Assembly (NCBI GenBank): GCA_902617375.1
Contig: CACMWI010000002.1
Coordinates: 1,566 to 65,565 of the forward strand
Reading direction: 5' to 3'
Source: an uncultured Alphaproteobacteria bacterium
Lineage (GTDB): Bacteria > Pseudomonadota > Alphaproteobacteria > Methylaequorales > Methylaequoraceae
DNA: 64,000 bases
How positions within the stretch are numbered: position 1 is the stretch's first letter; each line of letters begins with the position of its first letter. This document shows positions 6,046 to 62,537 of this stretch, in pieces. The position numbers and the translations under genes were made by a program. A model generated the notes under the pieces. The model was not told the origin of the DNA and made no database searches. It saw only the letters and a program-made list of their open reading frames with translations.

Positions 6046-8800
6046 GACCAACTTTAGCATGAAAGCTAACTTGTCAGAAAAGGAAACCCAATGGCTTGAA
6101 TTTTGGCATGAAAATGAAATTTATGACAAACTAAAAAAAAAAAATAAAAAAAATATTAAGTATGTTTTACATGATGGTCCGCCTTATGCAAATGGTGACC
6201 TTCATCTTGGTCATGCCTTGAATAAAATCTTAAAAGATGTAATTTGCAGATTTAAATTTCAGAGCGCAATGAATGTTGAATATGTTCCTGGTTGGGATTG
6301 TCACGGACTCCCAATCGAATGGAAGGTTGAGGAGCAGTTTAGAAAATCTGGGAAAAAAAAATCGGAAGTTAATTTGCAAATATTCAGAGAAGAATGCAGA
6401 CAGTTTGCAAAGAAATGGGTAAGTATTCAGAGAGATCAATTTAATAGATTTGGCATTCAGACTAATTGGGAAGAAATTTATTTAACAATGAATAAAAACT
6501 CGGAAGTAACGATTGTATCTGAGTTGTTGAAATTTCTAGAATCAGAACAGTTATATCTTGGATTTAAACCAGTAATGTGGTCTGTTGTTGAACAAACCGC
6601 ATTAGCTGAAGCTGAAATAGAGTATTTAGAAAAAAAATCAAAAGCAATTTACGTAAAATTTCCAGTAGAAAACTTCTTGGAAAACGTAAGTATCATTATC
6701 TGGACTACGACACCTTGGACTATTCCATGCAATAAGGCTATTGCCTTTTCTAATGATCTTAAATACTCATTAATTGAAATTGATAAGGATTTAAAAAATC
6801 TCGCATTAAAAAAGAATGATAAGATTATATTAGCCGATAATTTGGTTCAAAATTTTTGTGAAACTCATTCAATTAACAACTTTTCAAAAGTAAGTTCAAT
6901 TGATTCAGAAAAACTTAAGCAACTAAAATGTCAACATCCACTAAGAAATTTAGGATTTGATCATTCAGTCAGTTTATTTGAAGCTGAGCACGTTACCGAT
7001 GAGGCTGGTACAGGGTTAGTTCATATAGCACCAAATCATGGAGTTGAAGACTTTGAGGTTGGTATAAAAAATGACCTGGATAATTTGCCTACAGTAGATA
7101 ATTCTGGAGTGTACACTGACAATGTTCCCTTTTTTTCAGGTACGCACGTTTACAAAGCCGATGAGAGTGTTATTAATGAATTAAAAAATTCAAATACTCT
7201 AATTAGTTCAAATGATTATTTTCACAGCTATCCTCATTCTTGGAGGTCCAAAGCACCATTAATTTATAGAGCAACATCTCAATGGTTCATCTCAATGGAG
7301 AGAAAAGATCTTCGAAGTAAGGCTCTCAATGAAATAGAGAAAGTAAAGTGGATACCTGAAAATAGTAAAAATAGAATTAGATCTATGGTGAAAGATCGAC
7401 CAGATTGGTGTGTATCAAGACAACGTTCTTGGGGCGTTCCAATTACTATTTTCGTCTCCAAGGTAAATGGCGAACCTCTTATTAATAAACATATTAATAT
7501 GAAAATATTATCAACTATTAAAAATGAAGGTATTGATGCTTGGTTTACTAAACCAAAAGATTATTTTTTAAGTGAAATAGCAAATTCAGAAGAATATGAA
7601 AAAGTTAGTTCTATTTTAGATGTTTGGTTTGATTCAGGTTCAAGCCATGTTTATGTTTTAAAAAACAATGGTTTTAATTGCAAAGCTGATCTTTATTTAG
7701 AAGGTTCGGATCAGCATCGTGGTTGGTTTCAATCGTCTTTAATTGAAAGTTGTGCGAACTTCGGCGAAAGTCCATTTAAGTCAGTCTTGACACATGGTTT
7801 TGTAATCGATGAGAAGGGAAAAAAAATGTCAAAATCGTTAGGAAATGTGATTTCACCTTCAGATGTAATTAAAAAGTATGGTGCTGATATTTTAAGAATT
7901 TGGGTTGCTAATTCAAACTTTAATGAAGACATAAAAATAAGTTATCAGAACTTGGAACGGCAAGCTGAGAGTTATCGAAAAATTAGAAACACAATAAGGT
8001 TTATTTTAGGAAATTTAAATAATTTCTCTTTAGATTTAAAATTAGAACATAAAAGCCTTTTACCATTGGAGAAATTTATAAGGCATAAGCTTTATAACTT
8101 GAATAAAGAGATTAACGAGGCTTATGACGCGTTTAATTTTCATAGAGTTTTTCAAACGATACTTAACTTTTGTTCTCAAGAACTTTCTGCTCTATTCTTC
8201 GATATAAGAAAAGATGCATTATATTGTGATAAAAATAATTCTTTGAATGTAAGATCATCTAAAACGGTCATGACTGACGTTTTTGATTGTTTAATTAGAT
8301 GGCTTTCACCTATAATACCGTTCACAACCGAGGAAGCATGGCAGTGTTGGAAAGAAGATATTAACAAAAACAGTGAACAGAGTTGTCATTTGTTAGAAAA
8401 TCTTGAACTCCCTGATGAATGGAATGATATCAATTTAAATAATGAATGGTCAAAAATTTTAGAAATTAAAAATGCTTTTACTTTTGCTGTTGAACAAAAA
8501 AGAAATAAAAAAGAAATCAAATCCAGTTTAGAAGCAAGTGCTTTTGTTTATTTAAAAGATAATGAGTATAAGAAAATTTCAGAGAATCAAAATTTAAGCG
8601 AGATCCTTATTTCAGCGAATATAGAAATTTCAGAAGATTTCGATGATCAATTCCTTTTTAACTCAGATAATAAGGAAATTGGGGTAAAAATATTTAAAGA
8701 AGAAGGAGATAAATGTCCAAGATGCTGGAAACTTTATAAACAACTAGATGAAAAAAATCAGCTTTGTGATAGGTGTATGTCGGTAATTAATGAAAATTAA
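6011..8800 (+). CDS. ileS: Isoleucine--tRNA ligase
   Basis: 929 aa; class I HIGH-type motif (PYANGDLHLGHALN), KMSKS, and a C-terminal Zn ribbon (CPRCW...CDRC). Overlaps ribF by 35 nt. Confidence 0.95.
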   Translation: MTNYSKTINLPKTNFSMKANLSEKETQWLEFWHENEIYDKLKKKNKKNIKYVLHDGPPYANGDLHLGHALNKILKDVICRFKFQSAMNVEYVPGWDCHGLPIEWKVEEQFRKSGKKKSEVNLQIFREECRQFAKKWVSIQRDQFNRFGIQTNWEEIYLTMNKNSEVTIVSELLKFLESEQLYLGFKPVMWSVVEQTALAEAEIEYLEKKSKAIYVKFPVENFLENVSIIIWTTTPWTIPCNKAIAFSNDLKYSLIEIDKDLKNLALKKNDKIILADNLVQNFCETHSINNFSKVSSIDSEKLKQLKCQHPLRNLGFDHSVSLFEAEHVTDEAGTGLVHIAPNHGVEDFEVGIKNDLDNLPTVDNSGVYTDNVPFFSGTHVYKADESVINELKNSNTLISSNDYFHSYPHSWRSKAPLIYRATSQWFISMERKDLRSKALNEIEKVKWIPENSKNRIRSMVKDRPDWCVSRQRSWGVPITIFVSKVNGEPLINKHINMKILSTIKNEGIDAWFTKPKDYFLSEIANSEEYEKVSSILDVWFDSGSSHVYVLKNNGFNCKADLYLEGSDQHRGWFQSSLIESCANFGESPFKSVLTHGFVIDEKGKKMSKSLGNVISPSDVIKKYGADILRIWVANSNFNEDIKISYQNLERQAESYRKIRNTIRFILGNLNNFSLDLKLEHKSLLPLEKFIRHKLYNLNKEINEAYDAFNFHRVFQTILNFCSQELSALFFDIRKDALYCDKNNSLNVRSSKTVMTDVFDCLIRWLSPIIPFTTEEAWQCWKEDINKNSEQSCHLLENLELPDEWNDINLNNEWSKILEIKNAFTFAVEQKRNKKEIKSSLEASAFVYLKDNEYKKISENQNLSEILISANIEISEDFDDQFLFNSDNKEIGVKIFKEEGDKCPRCWKLYKQLDEKNQLCDRCMSVINEN

Positions 8801-9254
8801 CAAAGATTTTATTTTAGCTTTTACAATTTCTTCAATTGCGGTGATTCTTGATCAGATTTCAAAATCATTAATTTTAAACTATAAATTCTTACTTCCAATG
8901 AAAGTGTCGTCTTTTGATATTTTGAATATAGTTTATGTTGAAAATAAAGGTATCAGTTTTGGAATGCTTTCAGAGTATAATATTCCTTTTTGGCTAGGAA
9001 TATTGTCTTTTGCAATTAGTTTATATGTTATCTTTCTGATAACAAAGTCTCAAAGTAAGTTGGAATTAACTGGATTGTCATTAATTTTAGGTGGAGCAAT
9101 TGGCAATGGCATTGATAGATTATTCAGTGGTTATGTAATTGATTTTATTGATCTTTATTATAGAAATTTTCATTGGCCGGCATTTAACTTTGCTGACTCG
9201 TTTATAACCGCGGGAGCTGTTTTATTTTTTTTTAAATTATTTTTTATTAAATAA
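8790..9254 (+). CDS. lspA: Lipoprotein signal peptidase (signal peptidase II)
   Basis: 154 aa polytopic membrane protein with conserved GNGIDR and FNFADSFITAGAVLF motifs. Confidence 0.9.
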   Translation: MKINKDFILAFTISSIAVILDQISKSLILNYKFLLPMKVSSFDILNIVYVENKGISFGMLSEYNIPFWLGILSFAISLYVIFLITKSQSKLELTGLSLILGGAIGNGIDRLFSGYVIDFIDLYYRNFHWPAFNFADSFITAGAVLFFFKLFFIK

Positions 9255-9368
9255 GAAAATAATTGAGAATTATGCTTTTCAAAGTCATAAACTAATGTTA
9301 TTTATATATTTTACAAGCAACAAAATGTTTGTATTAATGTTTAATTAAACACTATATATAGTATAATT

Positions 9369-10025
9369 ATGCAAATTTTACGTACACTTAGAACATTGTC
9401 GATGTCAATGATGCTTATACTTGTGCAATCATGTTCAACTATCGAGTCAACAGTCGATTCAACCTTGGATTCAATAAGTGAAGCTGGCGACTTTATCTAT
9501 GATTCTGTTAATTTCTGGGACGAGGACGAACCAGAGCAAAGCGAAGCTGTAATAATTGAGGAAGCAGTAGAGGTTCCAGAGTATGCTATTCCAGATGAGA
9601 GTTACTTTGAACCTGGGTTAAGTCAGGAACAAAATTTTAGCAATCAACAGAGCTTTCAACCTCAAGTTAATGCTCAACCTTATTATGACCCAATTTACAG
9701 GAGCCAGAGACAATACTATTATGTGGGACCTAATGGAACTCCAATGCTAGCCCCACCTCCGCCACCTTTTCCTCAATATTCAATTGATCAAGTAGCTCCA
9801 CTACCTTATTCATATTCAAATAACCTAGATATGCCTAGGTCATTTAATCCAAATATGAATAGTTTCGCACCTAGGCAGAACTTAGGTGTTACAAACCAAA
9901 ATCAAAATGTTAAACCAACTATTACACTCGAAGAAGAAATGGAATTATTTGGAATACAAAATGATTGTGTTAGGGTAACAGAAGATTTTGTAAACGGCGG
10001 ATTTATGTGTGATGATTATGATTAA
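9369..10025 (+). CDS. Hypothetical low-complexity (Q/P/Y/E-rich) putative lipoprotein
   Basis: 218 aa; N-terminal signal with a lipobox-like LVQSC; acidic stretch, APPPPPFPQY, YYDPIY motif and a C-terminal CVRVTEDFVNGGFMCDDYD. No recognisable catalytic motif. Local GC is visibly higher than the surroundings. Confidence 0.5.
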   Translation: MQILRTLRTLSMSMMLILVQSCSTIESTVDSTLDSISEAGDFIYDSVNFWDEDEPEQSEAVIIEEAVEVPEYAIPDESYFEPGLSQEQNFSNQQSFQPQVNAQPYYDPIYRSQRQYYYVGPNGTPMLAPPPPPFPQYSIDQVAPLPYSYSNNLDMPRSFNPNMNSFAPRQNLGVTNQNQNVKPTITLEEEMELFGIQNDCVRVTEDFVNGGFMCDDYD

Positions 10026-10602
10026 TAATTATTTAAAGTATTTTCTTATCTTTTCTGTATTTGTATTAAACTCTTGTGAAACTCTTCAAGACTTCGCCGG
10101 TTTAAATAAACCTGACCTTGAAACAGATTTATTTGAAGAAACACCCGAATTGGTTCTTCCCCCAGATTTTGGAAAAGTTGCTAAGAGAAACAAATATAGA
10201 AATGAAAAAATCATAAATCAAACACCAGATTTTAGTGATAATTTTCAGCAACCACAATATCAAAGCATCCAACCTCGTGTGACAAATTATATTGCTCCTA
10301 GAATAAATATTGAATCATCACCAACTCCCTCTGATTCACTCGAAAGATTTAAAGAAAATAAAAAATTTACAATTGGACAGTGGGTGTACGGACAATATAT
10401 ACAAGGTTTTAAACAAGGAAATCTTTATTACAGACCAATTTACGATAAGGGTTATAACTTTTCCAGAAGATATTTACCTGATCAAAACATAACTTCCTTT
10501 TTAAGACCACAACAACAATATATTGAGAATGCCAATAGAAGAGAATCCATTCCAATGGACTCAAATTTTCAGAATTTAGAAAACTTACCAATAATTGATT
10601 AA
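10009..10602 (+). CDS. Hypothetical Q/Y/N-rich putative lipoprotein, paralog of the upstream gene
   Basis: 197 aa; signal plus lipobox-like VLNSC. Shares a YYRPIY motif with the upstream protein (YYDPIY). Overlaps the upstream ORF by 17 nt; the start could be any of M1, M2 or M4. Confidence 0.5.
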   Translation: MMIMINNYLKYFLIFSVFVLNSCETLQDFAGLNKPDLETDLFEETPELVLPPDFGKVAKRNKYRNEKIINQTPDFSDNFQQPQYQSIQPRVTNYIAPRINIESSPTPSDSLERFKENKKFTIGQWVYGQYIQGFKQGNLYYRPIYDKGYNFSRRYLPDQNITSFLRPQQQYIENANRRESIPMDSNFQNLENLPIID

Positions 10603-11913
10603 ATGAAGATAGTTGGGATTTTATTTATTCTACTATTTTGCTTTGAATCCAAATCAAACATAAATTTCAATGCTAAATCAACTACTTTGGAAAATGGATT
10701 GAGATTAATTGTTGTTGAAAACCCTAGAGCTCCTGTCGTTGCTCAAATGATGTGGTATAATTTCGGATCGAATATAGAACAAAGAGGTAAAAGTGGTTTG
10801 GCTCATTTTATGGAGCATCTTATGTTTAAAGGAACAAAGAAATTCCCAAATAGTTATTACTCAGATTATCTTTCAAAAATAGGTGGTAGTGAGAATGCAT
10901 TTACAAGTTACGATTATACGGCGTATTACCAAATTTTCCCAAGTCAACATTTGGAAAAAATTATCGAACTCGAAGCTGACAGAATGAACAACCTAACTCT
11001 AACTAAAAAGAATGTGGAAATTGAGAAAAAAGTAATTTTAGAAGAAAGATTTCAAAGAATTGAGAGTGATCCGTCAGCCCAACTTGACGAATCTATGAGA
11101 ACCGTATTATTTCCAAATGATTATTATGGTCGACCTATAATTGGTTGGAAGCACGAAATCGAAAATCTCTCTTATGATGATGTAATCGATTTTTATAAAG
11201 AAAATTATAACCCCAACAACGCTATTTTAATTTTGTCAGGAGATATAAAATTTAAAAATGCAAAAAAATTAGTAAATAAATATTACAAATCTATAAAATC
11301 TTCACAAAAGATTAAACTTAATAAATTAAATAATCCTGATCTAAAAACTTCTACAAATGTCGAGCTAAGCAATGAAAATGTGAAGCAACAAATATGGAAG
11401 AGAATATATAGAACAAAGTCTTATAATGACTCAATGACTCAGTCAATTGCATTAGATTTAGGAATGAAAATTCTTGCTGGAGGGACTTCTAGTTTACTTT
11501 ACGAAGAGTTTGTTAATAAAAAAAAGATTTTTTCAATGGTGGGAGGTTTTTTTCAAGGTTTAACAAAAGGAAACGGATATATTTATTTTTACGCAATACC
11601 CAATAAGAAAATTGAACAGTCTGAAATAAGTGACTTGTTGGATAAATTTATAGTTCAAGCCATAGATGAGGGTATCTCCGAAGAAAAATTAATCTTAGAA
11701 AAGAAGAAATATTACTTTGATAGTATTTACGGCATGGACGGAATTTTAAAACCTGCTGAAATTATAGGAGAAGCATTAACTATTGGTTTAAGTCTGGATG
11801 ATATTGAAAATTGGAATGACAAACTTGATAAGATAAATCTGGAAATGGTAAAAAAAGAATTAAAAGAATTTTCAAAAAATAGAAATTTTGTTACAGGAAA
11901 CTTGAAGAATTGA
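10603..11913 (+). CDS. M16 family zinc metallopeptidase (pitrilysin/insulinase-like), catalytic subunit
   Basis: 436 aa; signal peptide; inverted zinc-binding motif HFMEHLMF (HxxEH) followed by a downstream E. Confidence 0.85.
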   Translation: MKIVGILFILLFCFESKSNINFNAKSTTLENGLRLIVVENPRAPVVAQMMWYNFGSNIEQRGKSGLAHFMEHLMFKGTKKFPNSYYSDYLSKIGGSENAFTSYDYTAYYQIFPSQHLEKIIELEADRMNNLTLTKKNVEIEKKVILEERFQRIESDPSAQLDESMRTVLFPNDYYGRPIIGWKHEIENLSYDDVIDFYKENYNPNNAILILSGDIKFKNAKKLVNKYYKSIKSSQKIKLNKLNNPDLKTSTNVELSNENVKQQIWKRIYRTKSYNDSMTQSIALDLGMKILAGGTSSLLYEEFVNKKKIFSMVGGFFQGLTKGNGYIYFYAIPNKKIEQSEISDLLDKFIVQAIDEGISEEKLILEKKKYYFDSIYGMDGILKPAEIIGEALTIGLSLDDIENWNDKLDKINLEMVKKELKEFSKNRNFVTGNLKN

Positions 11914-13199
11914 GATTTATTTTTTTATTTTTTTTATTAATATTCAAAAGCTTAGATGCTTTTGAATATAAAAATCTTAAAACAAATTCTGGAATTGAAT
12001 TTTGGTTTGTCGAGGATAAATCAATACCAATTGTCAGTGTAAGTTTTAGTTTTAGGGGAGGGAGTTCAATTGATATTAAAGACAAAAATGGTATTTCAAA
12101 TTTGATGACATCTCTTCTGGACGAAGGAACTCGTAATTTAACTTCAAAGCAATTTAAAAACGAAATGAAAATGAATGGAATGAAGTTAAGCTTTAGTACA
12201 CAGAAAGATAAGATTGATGGTATATTTCAAATTATTTCAGCTCAGGCCAAGGATGGTTTTGATTTATTTTACGAAGCTTTAAATCATCCAAGCTTTAATA
12301 AGGTGGATATTAACAGAGTTAAGAGACAAGTTATATCTAGTATAAAAATTGATGAATCTGATTTATCAACTTTAGCTTCAAACAAATTTAATCAACACTT
12401 TTTTAAAGATCATGTTTTCTCAAACAACATAAAAGGATCGGAAGAATCAATTAAAAACGTTACAAGAACTGATTTAGTAAACTTTCATAAAAAATCTTTT
12501 GTAAAGAATAATTTAGTAATTGGTGTTGCCGGCAATATAAATGTTAATAAAATAAAAAAATATATTGAACTTGTTTTTGGGGAATTAAAAGACAATCAAC
12601 AAAATTATTCTATTAAACAATTTAAGGCTCTATCTGTTGGGCAAAAAATGTTTGAAATGAAAACACCACAGTCTAGTGTTTTATTTGGTCACCCTGGATT
12701 AGAAAGAAATAATGAAAATTTTTTTGCACTTAGAATTGCGAACTATATTTTGGGTGGTGGTGGATTTCAATCTCGTCTTTATAAAAATATCAGGGAAAAA
12801 AAAGGTCTTGTTTATTCAATTTATTCATATTTATTGTCTTACGAAAATGATGGTGTAATTGTTGGGGGCTTTCAAACAAGGAACAAATCTGTCTTTCAAA
12901 CTATTGAAAATGTAAAAAATGAATGGAAAAAACTTAATAAACGTGGAATTACAAAAAGCGAGTTAGACAATGCTAAAGCTTATTTTAATGGATCTTTTAC
13001 GAGGAATTTTACAAGCACTCTATCGATAGCAAGATTATTACAAGTTGTTCAATATTATGAGCTTGGAGCCGATTATTTTATTAAAAGAGAGAAAATCATT
13101 AATAGTCTAAATCTAGAAAAAGTAAATGGTATAATTTCAGAATATTTCTCAAACGAAAAATTGTTTTTTATGATTGTCGGAGAGCCAGAAAAGAAATGA
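11910..13199 (+). CDS. M16 family peptidase-like protein, probable non-catalytic partner subunit
   Basis: 429 aa; M16 fold pattern with a signal peptide but no HxxEH. The 4-nt overlap with the upstream M16 gene suggests a heterodimeric pair. Confidence 0.7.
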   Translation: MRFIFLFFLLIFKSLDAFEYKNLKTNSGIEFWFVEDKSIPIVSVSFSFRGGSSIDIKDKNGISNLMTSLLDEGTRNLTSKQFKNEMKMNGMKLSFSTQKDKIDGIFQIISAQAKDGFDLFYEALNHPSFNKVDINRVKRQVISSIKIDESDLSTLASNKFNQHFFKDHVFSNNIKGSEESIKNVTRTDLVNFHKKSFVKNNLVIGVAGNINVNKIKKYIELVFGELKDNQQNYSIKQFKALSVGQKMFEMKTPQSSVLFGHPGLERNNENFFALRIANYILGGGGFQSRLYKNIREKKGLVYSIYSYLLSYENDGVIVGGFQTRNKSVFQTIENVKNEWKKLNKRGITKSELDNAKAYFNGSFTRNFTSTLSIARLLQVVQYYELGADYFIKREKIINSLNLEKVNGIISEYFSNEKLFFMIVGEPEKK

Positions 13200-62462: not shown

Positions 62463-62537
62463 TGGGGTGTGGCCAAGTGGTAAGGCACCGCTTTTTGGTA
62501 GCGGCATTCGTAGGTTCGAATCCTACCACCCCAGCCA
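62463..62537 (+). tRNA. tRNA-Gln (anticodon UUG)
   Basis: 75-nt cloverleaf folded by hand. Acceptor TGGGGTG/CACCCCA (U1:A72). Anticodon stem CCGCT/AGCGG with loop TTTTGGT, anticodon TTG. T arm GTAGG-TTCGAAT-CCTAC. Discriminator G, with CCA encoded. Confidence 0.85.

Follow-up and report, generated by a model that had tools for sequence, protein, structure and literature searches.

The Pfam family DUF3035 (PF11233) corresponds to BamF, a lipoprotein of the β-barrel assembly machinery (BAM) complex that was described in Caulobacter crescentus as CC0699 (Anwari et al. 2012, PMC3359395). Caulobacter BamF is an outer-membrane lipoprotein that faces the periplasm, co-immunoprecipitates with BamA, BamB, BamD and BamE, and leaves the complex together with BamD (PMC3359395). 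Its gene lies immediately downstream of lspA, a ΔbamF strain is viable with mild permeability defects, and the first ~50 residues of the protein, which are disordered, contain a motif akin to the part of BamC that binds BamD (PMC3359395). BamC (NlpB), in turn, is an outer-membrane lipoprotein of Beta- and Gammaproteobacteria whose unstructured N-terminal region binds BamD. To our knowledge, BamF is the least understood subunit of the BAM complex, and we know of no role for its C-terminal half. Here we analyze two adjacent open reading frames (ORF1 and ORF2) that follow lspA in a stretch of 64,000 nucleotides (contig CACMWI010000002.1; hereafter, the window) from an uncultured alphaproteobacterium of the Methylaequoraceae.

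The lipoprotein genes between lspA and the M16 pair

We consider it reasonably probable that ORF1 and ORF2 encode co-expressed lipoproteins that jointly replace the single bamF of other Alphaproteobacteria, as read at the slot between lspA and a pair of genes for M16 (insulinase-type) peptidases. The best reading of the sequences is that the pair represents a divergent two-gene BamF, probably duplicated and subfunctionalised, with ORF2 as the probable BamF orthologue and ORF1 as its obligate neighbour, which may have kept the other conserved BamF block. ORF1 (9369..10025, + strand) starts with an ATG and encodes a 218-residue lipoprotein with the lipobox VQSC, the lipid-type Cys22 (9432-9434) and Ser at position +2. 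ORF2 (10009..10602, + strand), when read from its GTG, encodes a lipoprotein of 197 residues with the lipobox LNSC, Cys23 (10075-10077) and Glu at +2. Public gene calls start ORF2 at the ATG at 10012 (196 residues), which is probably the start in use. The overlap between the two frames, put at 17 nt in an earlier, sequence-only reading of this DNA, has this length for the longest ORF2 and amounts to 14 nt from the ATG.

The arrangement is conserved. We compared one genome per species, anchoring the loci on the first M16 gene (M16a), and obtained 21 related GTDB loci with M16a identities of 55-100%; the order ileS, lspA, ORF1, ORF2, M16, M16, pgi was found in 21 of the 21. The most divergent family members, which share 35-43% identity with the window proteins, come from contigs with the same order and the same overlap, and at every locus examined, including every metagenome contig, ORF1 comes first and ORF2 second, directly 3' of lspA, so that the pair is kept beside this gene outside the genome at hand.

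In seven more distant Alphaproteobacteria that this comparison also returned (a Rhodospirillaceae metagenome-assembled genome (MAG), Dongia, two Rickettsiales MAGs, Kiloniella and two unclassified MAGs; loci L022-L024, L026-L028 and L037) the same slot, between lspA and M16a, holds one lipoprotein gene encoding 166-204 residues, and all seven products belong to DUF3035 (E 1e-19 to 1e-46). The order lspA, bamF (DUF3035), M16, M16 is kept across these loci (at about 4.6-8.7 kb in each), and its conservation suggests that BamF and the secreted M16 pair are functionally connected. The slot is empty in Candidatus Mesenet longicola (L035:5453-7311), an endosymbiont-type genome in which lspA ends 54 nt before the start of M16a.

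A BamF-type motif in ORF2 and a candidate BamF block in ORF1

Both proteins carry a lipid-type Cys signal and are encoded next to lspA, as BamF is, and the N-terminal motif of BamF was found in ORF2 only, ORF1 being devoid of it. Profile comparison (hhalign) of the ORF2 family with the seven DUF3035 proteins of the slot gave E 6e-8 over 47 columns when the signal peptides were included and E 1.3e-4 for the mature parts; against 124 DUF3035 proteins, mature ORF2 scored 38.3 (E 2.3e-5, probability 76%), with mature residues 2-38 aligned to the start of DUF3035. The corresponding column-shuffle null had a mean of 12.6 (standard deviation 2.8) and a maximum of 21.9. A hidden Markov model (HMM) built from the first 36 mature residues of ORF2 was run against 3,663 sequences (the six-frame ORFs of all loci and of the window, plus 120 database DUF3035 proteins): right after its own family, the top 25 matches were all DUF3035 proteins, of which it matched 103, nearly all at a relative position of 0.2-0.3.

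The putative BamF-type motif spans ORF2 residues 24-60 (ETLQDFAGLNKPDLETDLFEETPELVLPPDFGK..., 10078..10188, + strand) and follows the pattern GLxK ... P-x-L-x-L-PPDF, with the family consensus CETxxDxAGLSKPxxDDxxxxETPELVLPPDF. PP[DN][FY] begins 28 residues after the Cys in 20 of the 23 ORF2 relatives and in 72 of 123 DUF3035 proteins, and position +2, which is Glu in ORF2, is acidic (Glu or Asp) in half of the DUF3035 proteins. At the other end of the protein, a pattern chosen post hoc, [LVT]P[IV][ILV][DE], occurs in 20/23 ORF2 relatives, 20/124 DUF3035 proteins (16%) and 0.7% of decoy ORFs; the terminal LPI[IL][DE] of the ORF2 family (window 10585-10599) resembles TPVIE or VPVID near the C-terminus of some of the DUF3035 proteins P0335-P0454. 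The C-terminal half of DUF3035, including its D-x-L-x-FWR block, is absent from ORF2.

A candidate for this second block stands in ORF1, right after the lipid Cys (residues 23-58, STIESTVDSTLDSISEAGDFIYDSVNFWDEDEPEQS, 9435..9542, + strand), where both hhalign and HMM searches place a BamF-like 'FW' block. The 35 residues at the start of the mature protein are matched to positions 105-139 of DUF3035, a block with the consensus IRxxVdrEt...f.d.LvFWRd, and the comparison of ORF1 with the DUF3035 profile scored 24.8 (E 0.004; range 0.002-0.004). None of 150 whole-protein column shuffles was as good (maximum 20.5), and the reversed control reached 8.9. Shuffling the N-terminal 45 columns alone, which keeps the local composition, gave scores that averaged 9.3 and peaked at 18.1, whereas the real alignment scored 21.4 (0 of 200 as good). 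In HMM searches, the DUF3035 model returned ORF2 and ORF1 relatives as its first matches after the true members, each at a consistent region, while the ORF1 N-terminal model matched 52 DUF3035 proteins, in 47 cases within one and the same tenth of the protein length (relative position 0.74); its best match (E 0.0066) pairs YiYDsvnFWeddePE with YFYDALVFWRDDEPH. The relation of this block to BamF is suggestive, not conclusive, and weaker than the evidence for ORF2.

Several results weigh against a BamF identity for the pair. The Pfam DUF3035 model is matched neither by ORF1 and ORF2 (E up to 1) nor by the 23 ORF2 and 18 ORF1 relatives (E up to 10). The similarity of ORF2 to DUF3035 covers only ~37 residues of a predicted disordered region, where short linear motifs of this kind can be convergent, and the lipobox of ORF2 in this genome is atypical, with Asn at -2. 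The ORF1 match is weak (individual E-values from 0.007 to over 1), and a search with the profile of the whole ORF1 brought up no DUF3035 protein. Moreover, the FW residues are missing from 3 of the 7 syntenic true DUF3035 proteins (L024:5479-5979, L026:5303-5830 and L027:2231-2815, from two Rickettsiales MAGs and one unclassified alphaproteobacterial MAG), so that the block is dispensable or replaceable in some lineages. Since neither protein reaches the Pfam model, we do not file either of them as a member of DUF3035; ORF2 is better described as a divergent BamF-type lipoprotein that sits in the bamF slot and appears to have retained the N-terminal motif.

Coding status, sequence blocks and the conserved spacer

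ORF1 and ORF2 are real genes under strong purifying selection. Their ratios of nonsynonymous to synonymous substitution rates against close relatives are 0.06-0.08 and 0.02-0.08, respectively (lspA, 0.11-0.25; M16a, 0.04-0.10), and their relatives in marine metagenomes form 558 (ORF1) and 512 (ORF2) clusters at 90% identity. Both families are narrow, with 95 clusters at 50% identity among 1.84 billion proteins (a filter-only HMMER pass with the two proteins joined as query), and by this search they are lineage-restricted, as the sequence-only reading had proposed. In the public marine records examined, the genes are unannotated or labelled 'hypothetical'. Three apparent ORF1-ORF2 fusions (P0253, P0287 and P0324) were rejected: all are on short contigs and result from a frameshift in reading the overlap. 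An ORF1 broken in two in a single MAG (L006:4744-5423) and a fragmented ileS on a long-read contig (L081:6001-8788) are likewise likely to be assembly frameshift errors. Within window positions 10005-10025, the conserved start of ORF2 (MIMI or MILI) shares its bases with the invariant ORF1 tail, CDD[YF][DE]-stop, and the reading frame of ORF1 thus constrains the N-terminal residues of ORF2.

The earlier description of both proteins as lipoprotein-like, with Q/P/Y/N-rich bodies, agrees with the alignments: each has a hydrophobic N-terminus ending in a Cys that is invariant or nearly so in its family, and the mature parts are rich in P, Q, N, E and Y. In this they resemble generic LspA-processed lipoproteins (PS00013 / PS51257), with a signal peptide and a lipobox Cys in both families. 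The ORF1 lipobox (LILVQSC) matches PROSITE PS00013; the ORF2 lipobox of this genome (VLNSC) falls outside the strict pattern because of its Asn at -2, whereas its relatives have LSSC, LTSC, ITSC or LFSC and mostly match. The proteins had also been taken for probably disordered chains lacking a recognisable catalytic motif, a description that holds only in part. Disorder is in keeping with the low confidence of the AlphaFold models (predicted local distance difference test, pLDDT, 58 and 56), but both proteins contain long invariant blocks. ORF1 is indeed more GC-rich than its surroundings, as had been noticed (37.5% against 29.7% for the window). With GC1 at 0.51, GC2 at 0.36 and GC3 at 0.26, the third position is near background and the excess falls on the first two, which traces it to the content of Pro, Glu, Ala, Asp and Gly rather than to a foreign origin; the latter was rejected on the background GC3 and on the synteny across the whole lineage.

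In ORF1, the FW-like block (part of the invariant family segment STIESTxDSTxDSISEAGDYIYDSVNFWEDxEPEQSEAIIIEEAVEVPEYA) is succeeded by an acidic segment, a Tyr/Pro-rich motif and a C-terminal domain with two Cys. The Tyr/Pro-rich block (YYDPIYRSxRQYYxVGPNGTPxxAPPPPPFPQYS; residues 104-141, 9678..9791, + strand) is invariant from Y110 to S138 in 18 sequences and has no Pfam or PDB match. The C-terminal mini-domain (EEMELFGIQNDCVRVxEDFVNGGFMCDDYD, family consensus EEMELFGIQNxCxRVxEDxVNGGYxCDDFD; 9924..10022, + strand) is the exception to the low confidence of the ORF1 model: the last ~35 residues of the protein reach pLDDT 73-86 and are modelled as a helix (H187-198) and a beta-hairpin (E203-206 and E211-214), with nearly invariant C200 and C214. 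ORF2 carries a lineage-specific block at residues 105-157 (10321..10479, + strand; family consensus SPSDSLExFKxNKKFTIGEWVYxQYVxGFKxGNLYYRPxYDKGYNFSRRYxP), which is invariant from P107 to P157 in 23 sequences, contains two short helices in a model that is otherwise mostly coil, and likewise has no Pfam or PDB match. Neither Pfam nor NCBIfam returned anything relevant for the two proteins or for any family member. PDB profile searches with ORF1, ORF2 and DUF3035 gave chance matches only, no structure has been solved for BamF or either family, and Foldseek found no match for the ORF1 model in the PDB (E above 8).

The surrounding genes are tightly packed. The end of ileS overlaps lspA (signal peptidase II; 8790..9254, + strand, Pfam Peptidase_A8, E 5.7e-36), the ORF2 stop abuts the ATG of M16a, and the junctions between M16a and the second M16 gene (M16b) and between M16b and the downstream pgi overlap by 4 nt each. 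The two M16 genes (10603-11913 and 11910-13199, spanning 10603..13199, + strand) both match Pfam Peptidase_M16 and M16_C, and their products have hydrophobic, signal-like N-termini. The earlier view of an envelope-biogenesis neighbourhood, set between lspA and an M16 pair, is upheld.

The sole sizeable gap in the run, of 114 nt, separates lspA from ORF1 (9255..9368, + strand). This spacer is AT-rich, and across 12 aligned loci 32 of its columns are invariant although the proteins on either side share only 50-80% identity. Four near-invariant blocks stand out, namely CTTTTCAAA, AAGTAATGTTAT, ACAAAATGTT and a perfect 12-bp palindrome, ACTATATATAGT (9351-9362), which is unique within the window and whose half, TATAGT, stands 6-7 nt ahead of the ATG of ORF1 at every locus. 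The spacer is probably a promoter or operator; the geometry of TATAGT would suit the -10 box of a leaderless mRNA, or an operator. A generic promoter and terminator scan showed nothing above chance. An RNA element in the spacer was ruled out, there being neither an Rfam match nor a consensus structure; at the gathering threshold, Rfam gave a single match in the whole window, a tRNA at 62463-62534.

Competing readings, proposed history and significance

The sequence-only reading took ORF1 and ORF2 for direct tandem paralogues, recognisable by a shared YYxPIY motif (PYYDPIYRS in one, LYYRPIYDK in the other) and by Q-rich stretches, an explanation that we now find very improbable. The two genes are adjacent, overlapping and alike in architecture, and YYxPIY is conserved inside each family. 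Profile against profile, they align with E 2.5e-8 when the signal peptides are present; this alignment does not extend beyond the signal peptides and a few residues at the start of the mature proteins (SC[SE]T[IL][EQ]), however, and the likeness of the signal peptides is largely compositional. A pairwise BLASTP gave E 0.62, and 41% of shuffled pairs reach the ungapped YYxPIY score, so that the motif is present but at the level of chance. With the signal peptides removed, the best hhalign alignment is a 12-column match at YYxPIY (score 18.9, E 0.04, probability 1.3%) that the reversed control equals (19.8). Direct paralogy was thus rejected as unsupported by BLASTP, hhalign, the reversed control and the shuffles. 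A common origin of the two genes by duplication is nonetheless possible on evidence other than that of the sequence-only reading, namely the BamF motifs that each may have kept.

A more serious competitor, unlikely in our judgement, holds that the pair consists of lineage-specific envelope lipoproteins unrelated to BamF, the bamF gene having been lost or moved, two new genes having come in at its site and the short motifs having converged in lipoprotein tethers. It would account for the failure of either family ever to match Pfam DUF3035, for the confinement of the BamF-like matches to short stretches of low-confidence, probably disordered sequence, and for central blocks that have no relatives elsewhere, whether in the search of 1.84 billion proteins or in the PDB. 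What it leaves to coincidence is that ORF2 occupies the same slot as DUF3035 and, like it, has PPDF 28 residues after the Cys and an acidic residue at +2, that its N-terminal HMM prefers DUF3035 over ~3,500 decoys, and that column shuffles never come near the observed ORF2 and ORF1 scores. Also weighing against it is the finding that the 98 other outer-membrane lipoproteins of Caulobacter share no common N-terminal motif (Anwari et al., PMC3359395). Less probable still is a role for ORF1 and ORF2 not in BAM but alongside the downstream periplasmic M16 pair, as its partners, its substrates or its regulators: the abutting ORF2 stop and M16a start, the tight packing of the whole run and the linkage of the bamF slot to the M16 genes across Alphaproteobacteria would fit this idea, which is also compatible with a BamF identity and has against it that Caulobacter BamF is found with BAM proteins.

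If ORF1 and ORF2 do replace bamF, both would be processed by LspA and would reside in the outer membrane, where ORF2 would dock on BamD via the motif next to its lipid anchor, in the way put forward for BamF and BamC, and contribute to beta-barrel assembly. Its new conserved central block would take the place of the usual C-terminal half of BamF, while ORF1, on a separate lipid anchor, would bring in new modules along with the FW block; translation of the two frames is probably coupled through their 14-17-nt overlap. The most economical history would have bamF duplicated in tandem, after which the two copies lost complementary parts and gained new blocks. Put in full, this amounts to the tentative proposal, to which we give somewhat less credence than to the replacement itself, that in a widespread, SAR11/HIMB59-like lineage of streamlined marine Alphaproteobacteria bamF was duplicated in tandem and, through complementary loss, split into two translationally coupled lipoproteins, one with the BamD-docking motif and the other with the FW block, each with new invariant modules.

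The comparison with BamF itself shows both sides of this proposal. Like BamF, the two proteins are lipoproteins of about 170-200 residues encoded just 3' of lspA, with disorder predicted after the lipid Cys; ORF2 adds the N-terminal motif, with PPD[FY] at the same 28-residue distance, and an acidic residue at +2, and ORF1, more weakly, a candidate for the D-x-L-x-FW-x-D-x-EP block. They differ in being two genes instead of one, each with only one BamF-like block, in lacking a significant match to the Pfam model, and in carrying large invariant parts that DUF3035 lacks (in ORF1 the Tyr/Pro-rich motif and the mini-domain with two Cys, in ORF2 the GEWVY...YDKGYNFSRRY block). The likeness to BamC is at most one of motif and function, by way of the description of the BamF motif by Anwari et al. 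(PMC3359395); neither ORF shows helix-grip domains in its model, and they have no Pfam match at all, a BamC-family entry included.

The sequence-only reading had left the function of the pair as unknown, and no Pfam match speaks to it, but the bamF slot and the BamF-type motifs allow this to be improved upon. The result closes a gap in annotation, where standard procedures miss the pair. If our proposal is true, a remodelled BAM complex with a previously unrecognised subunit composition would be present in bacteria that are among the most abundant in the ocean, and the natural split of the BamF blocks onto two lipoproteins would mark them as separable functional units and offer a handle for dissecting them. 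Because reviews already note lineages such as Brucella without a Pfam-detectable BamF, cryptic BamF-like proteins may be commoner than the Pfam model suggests.

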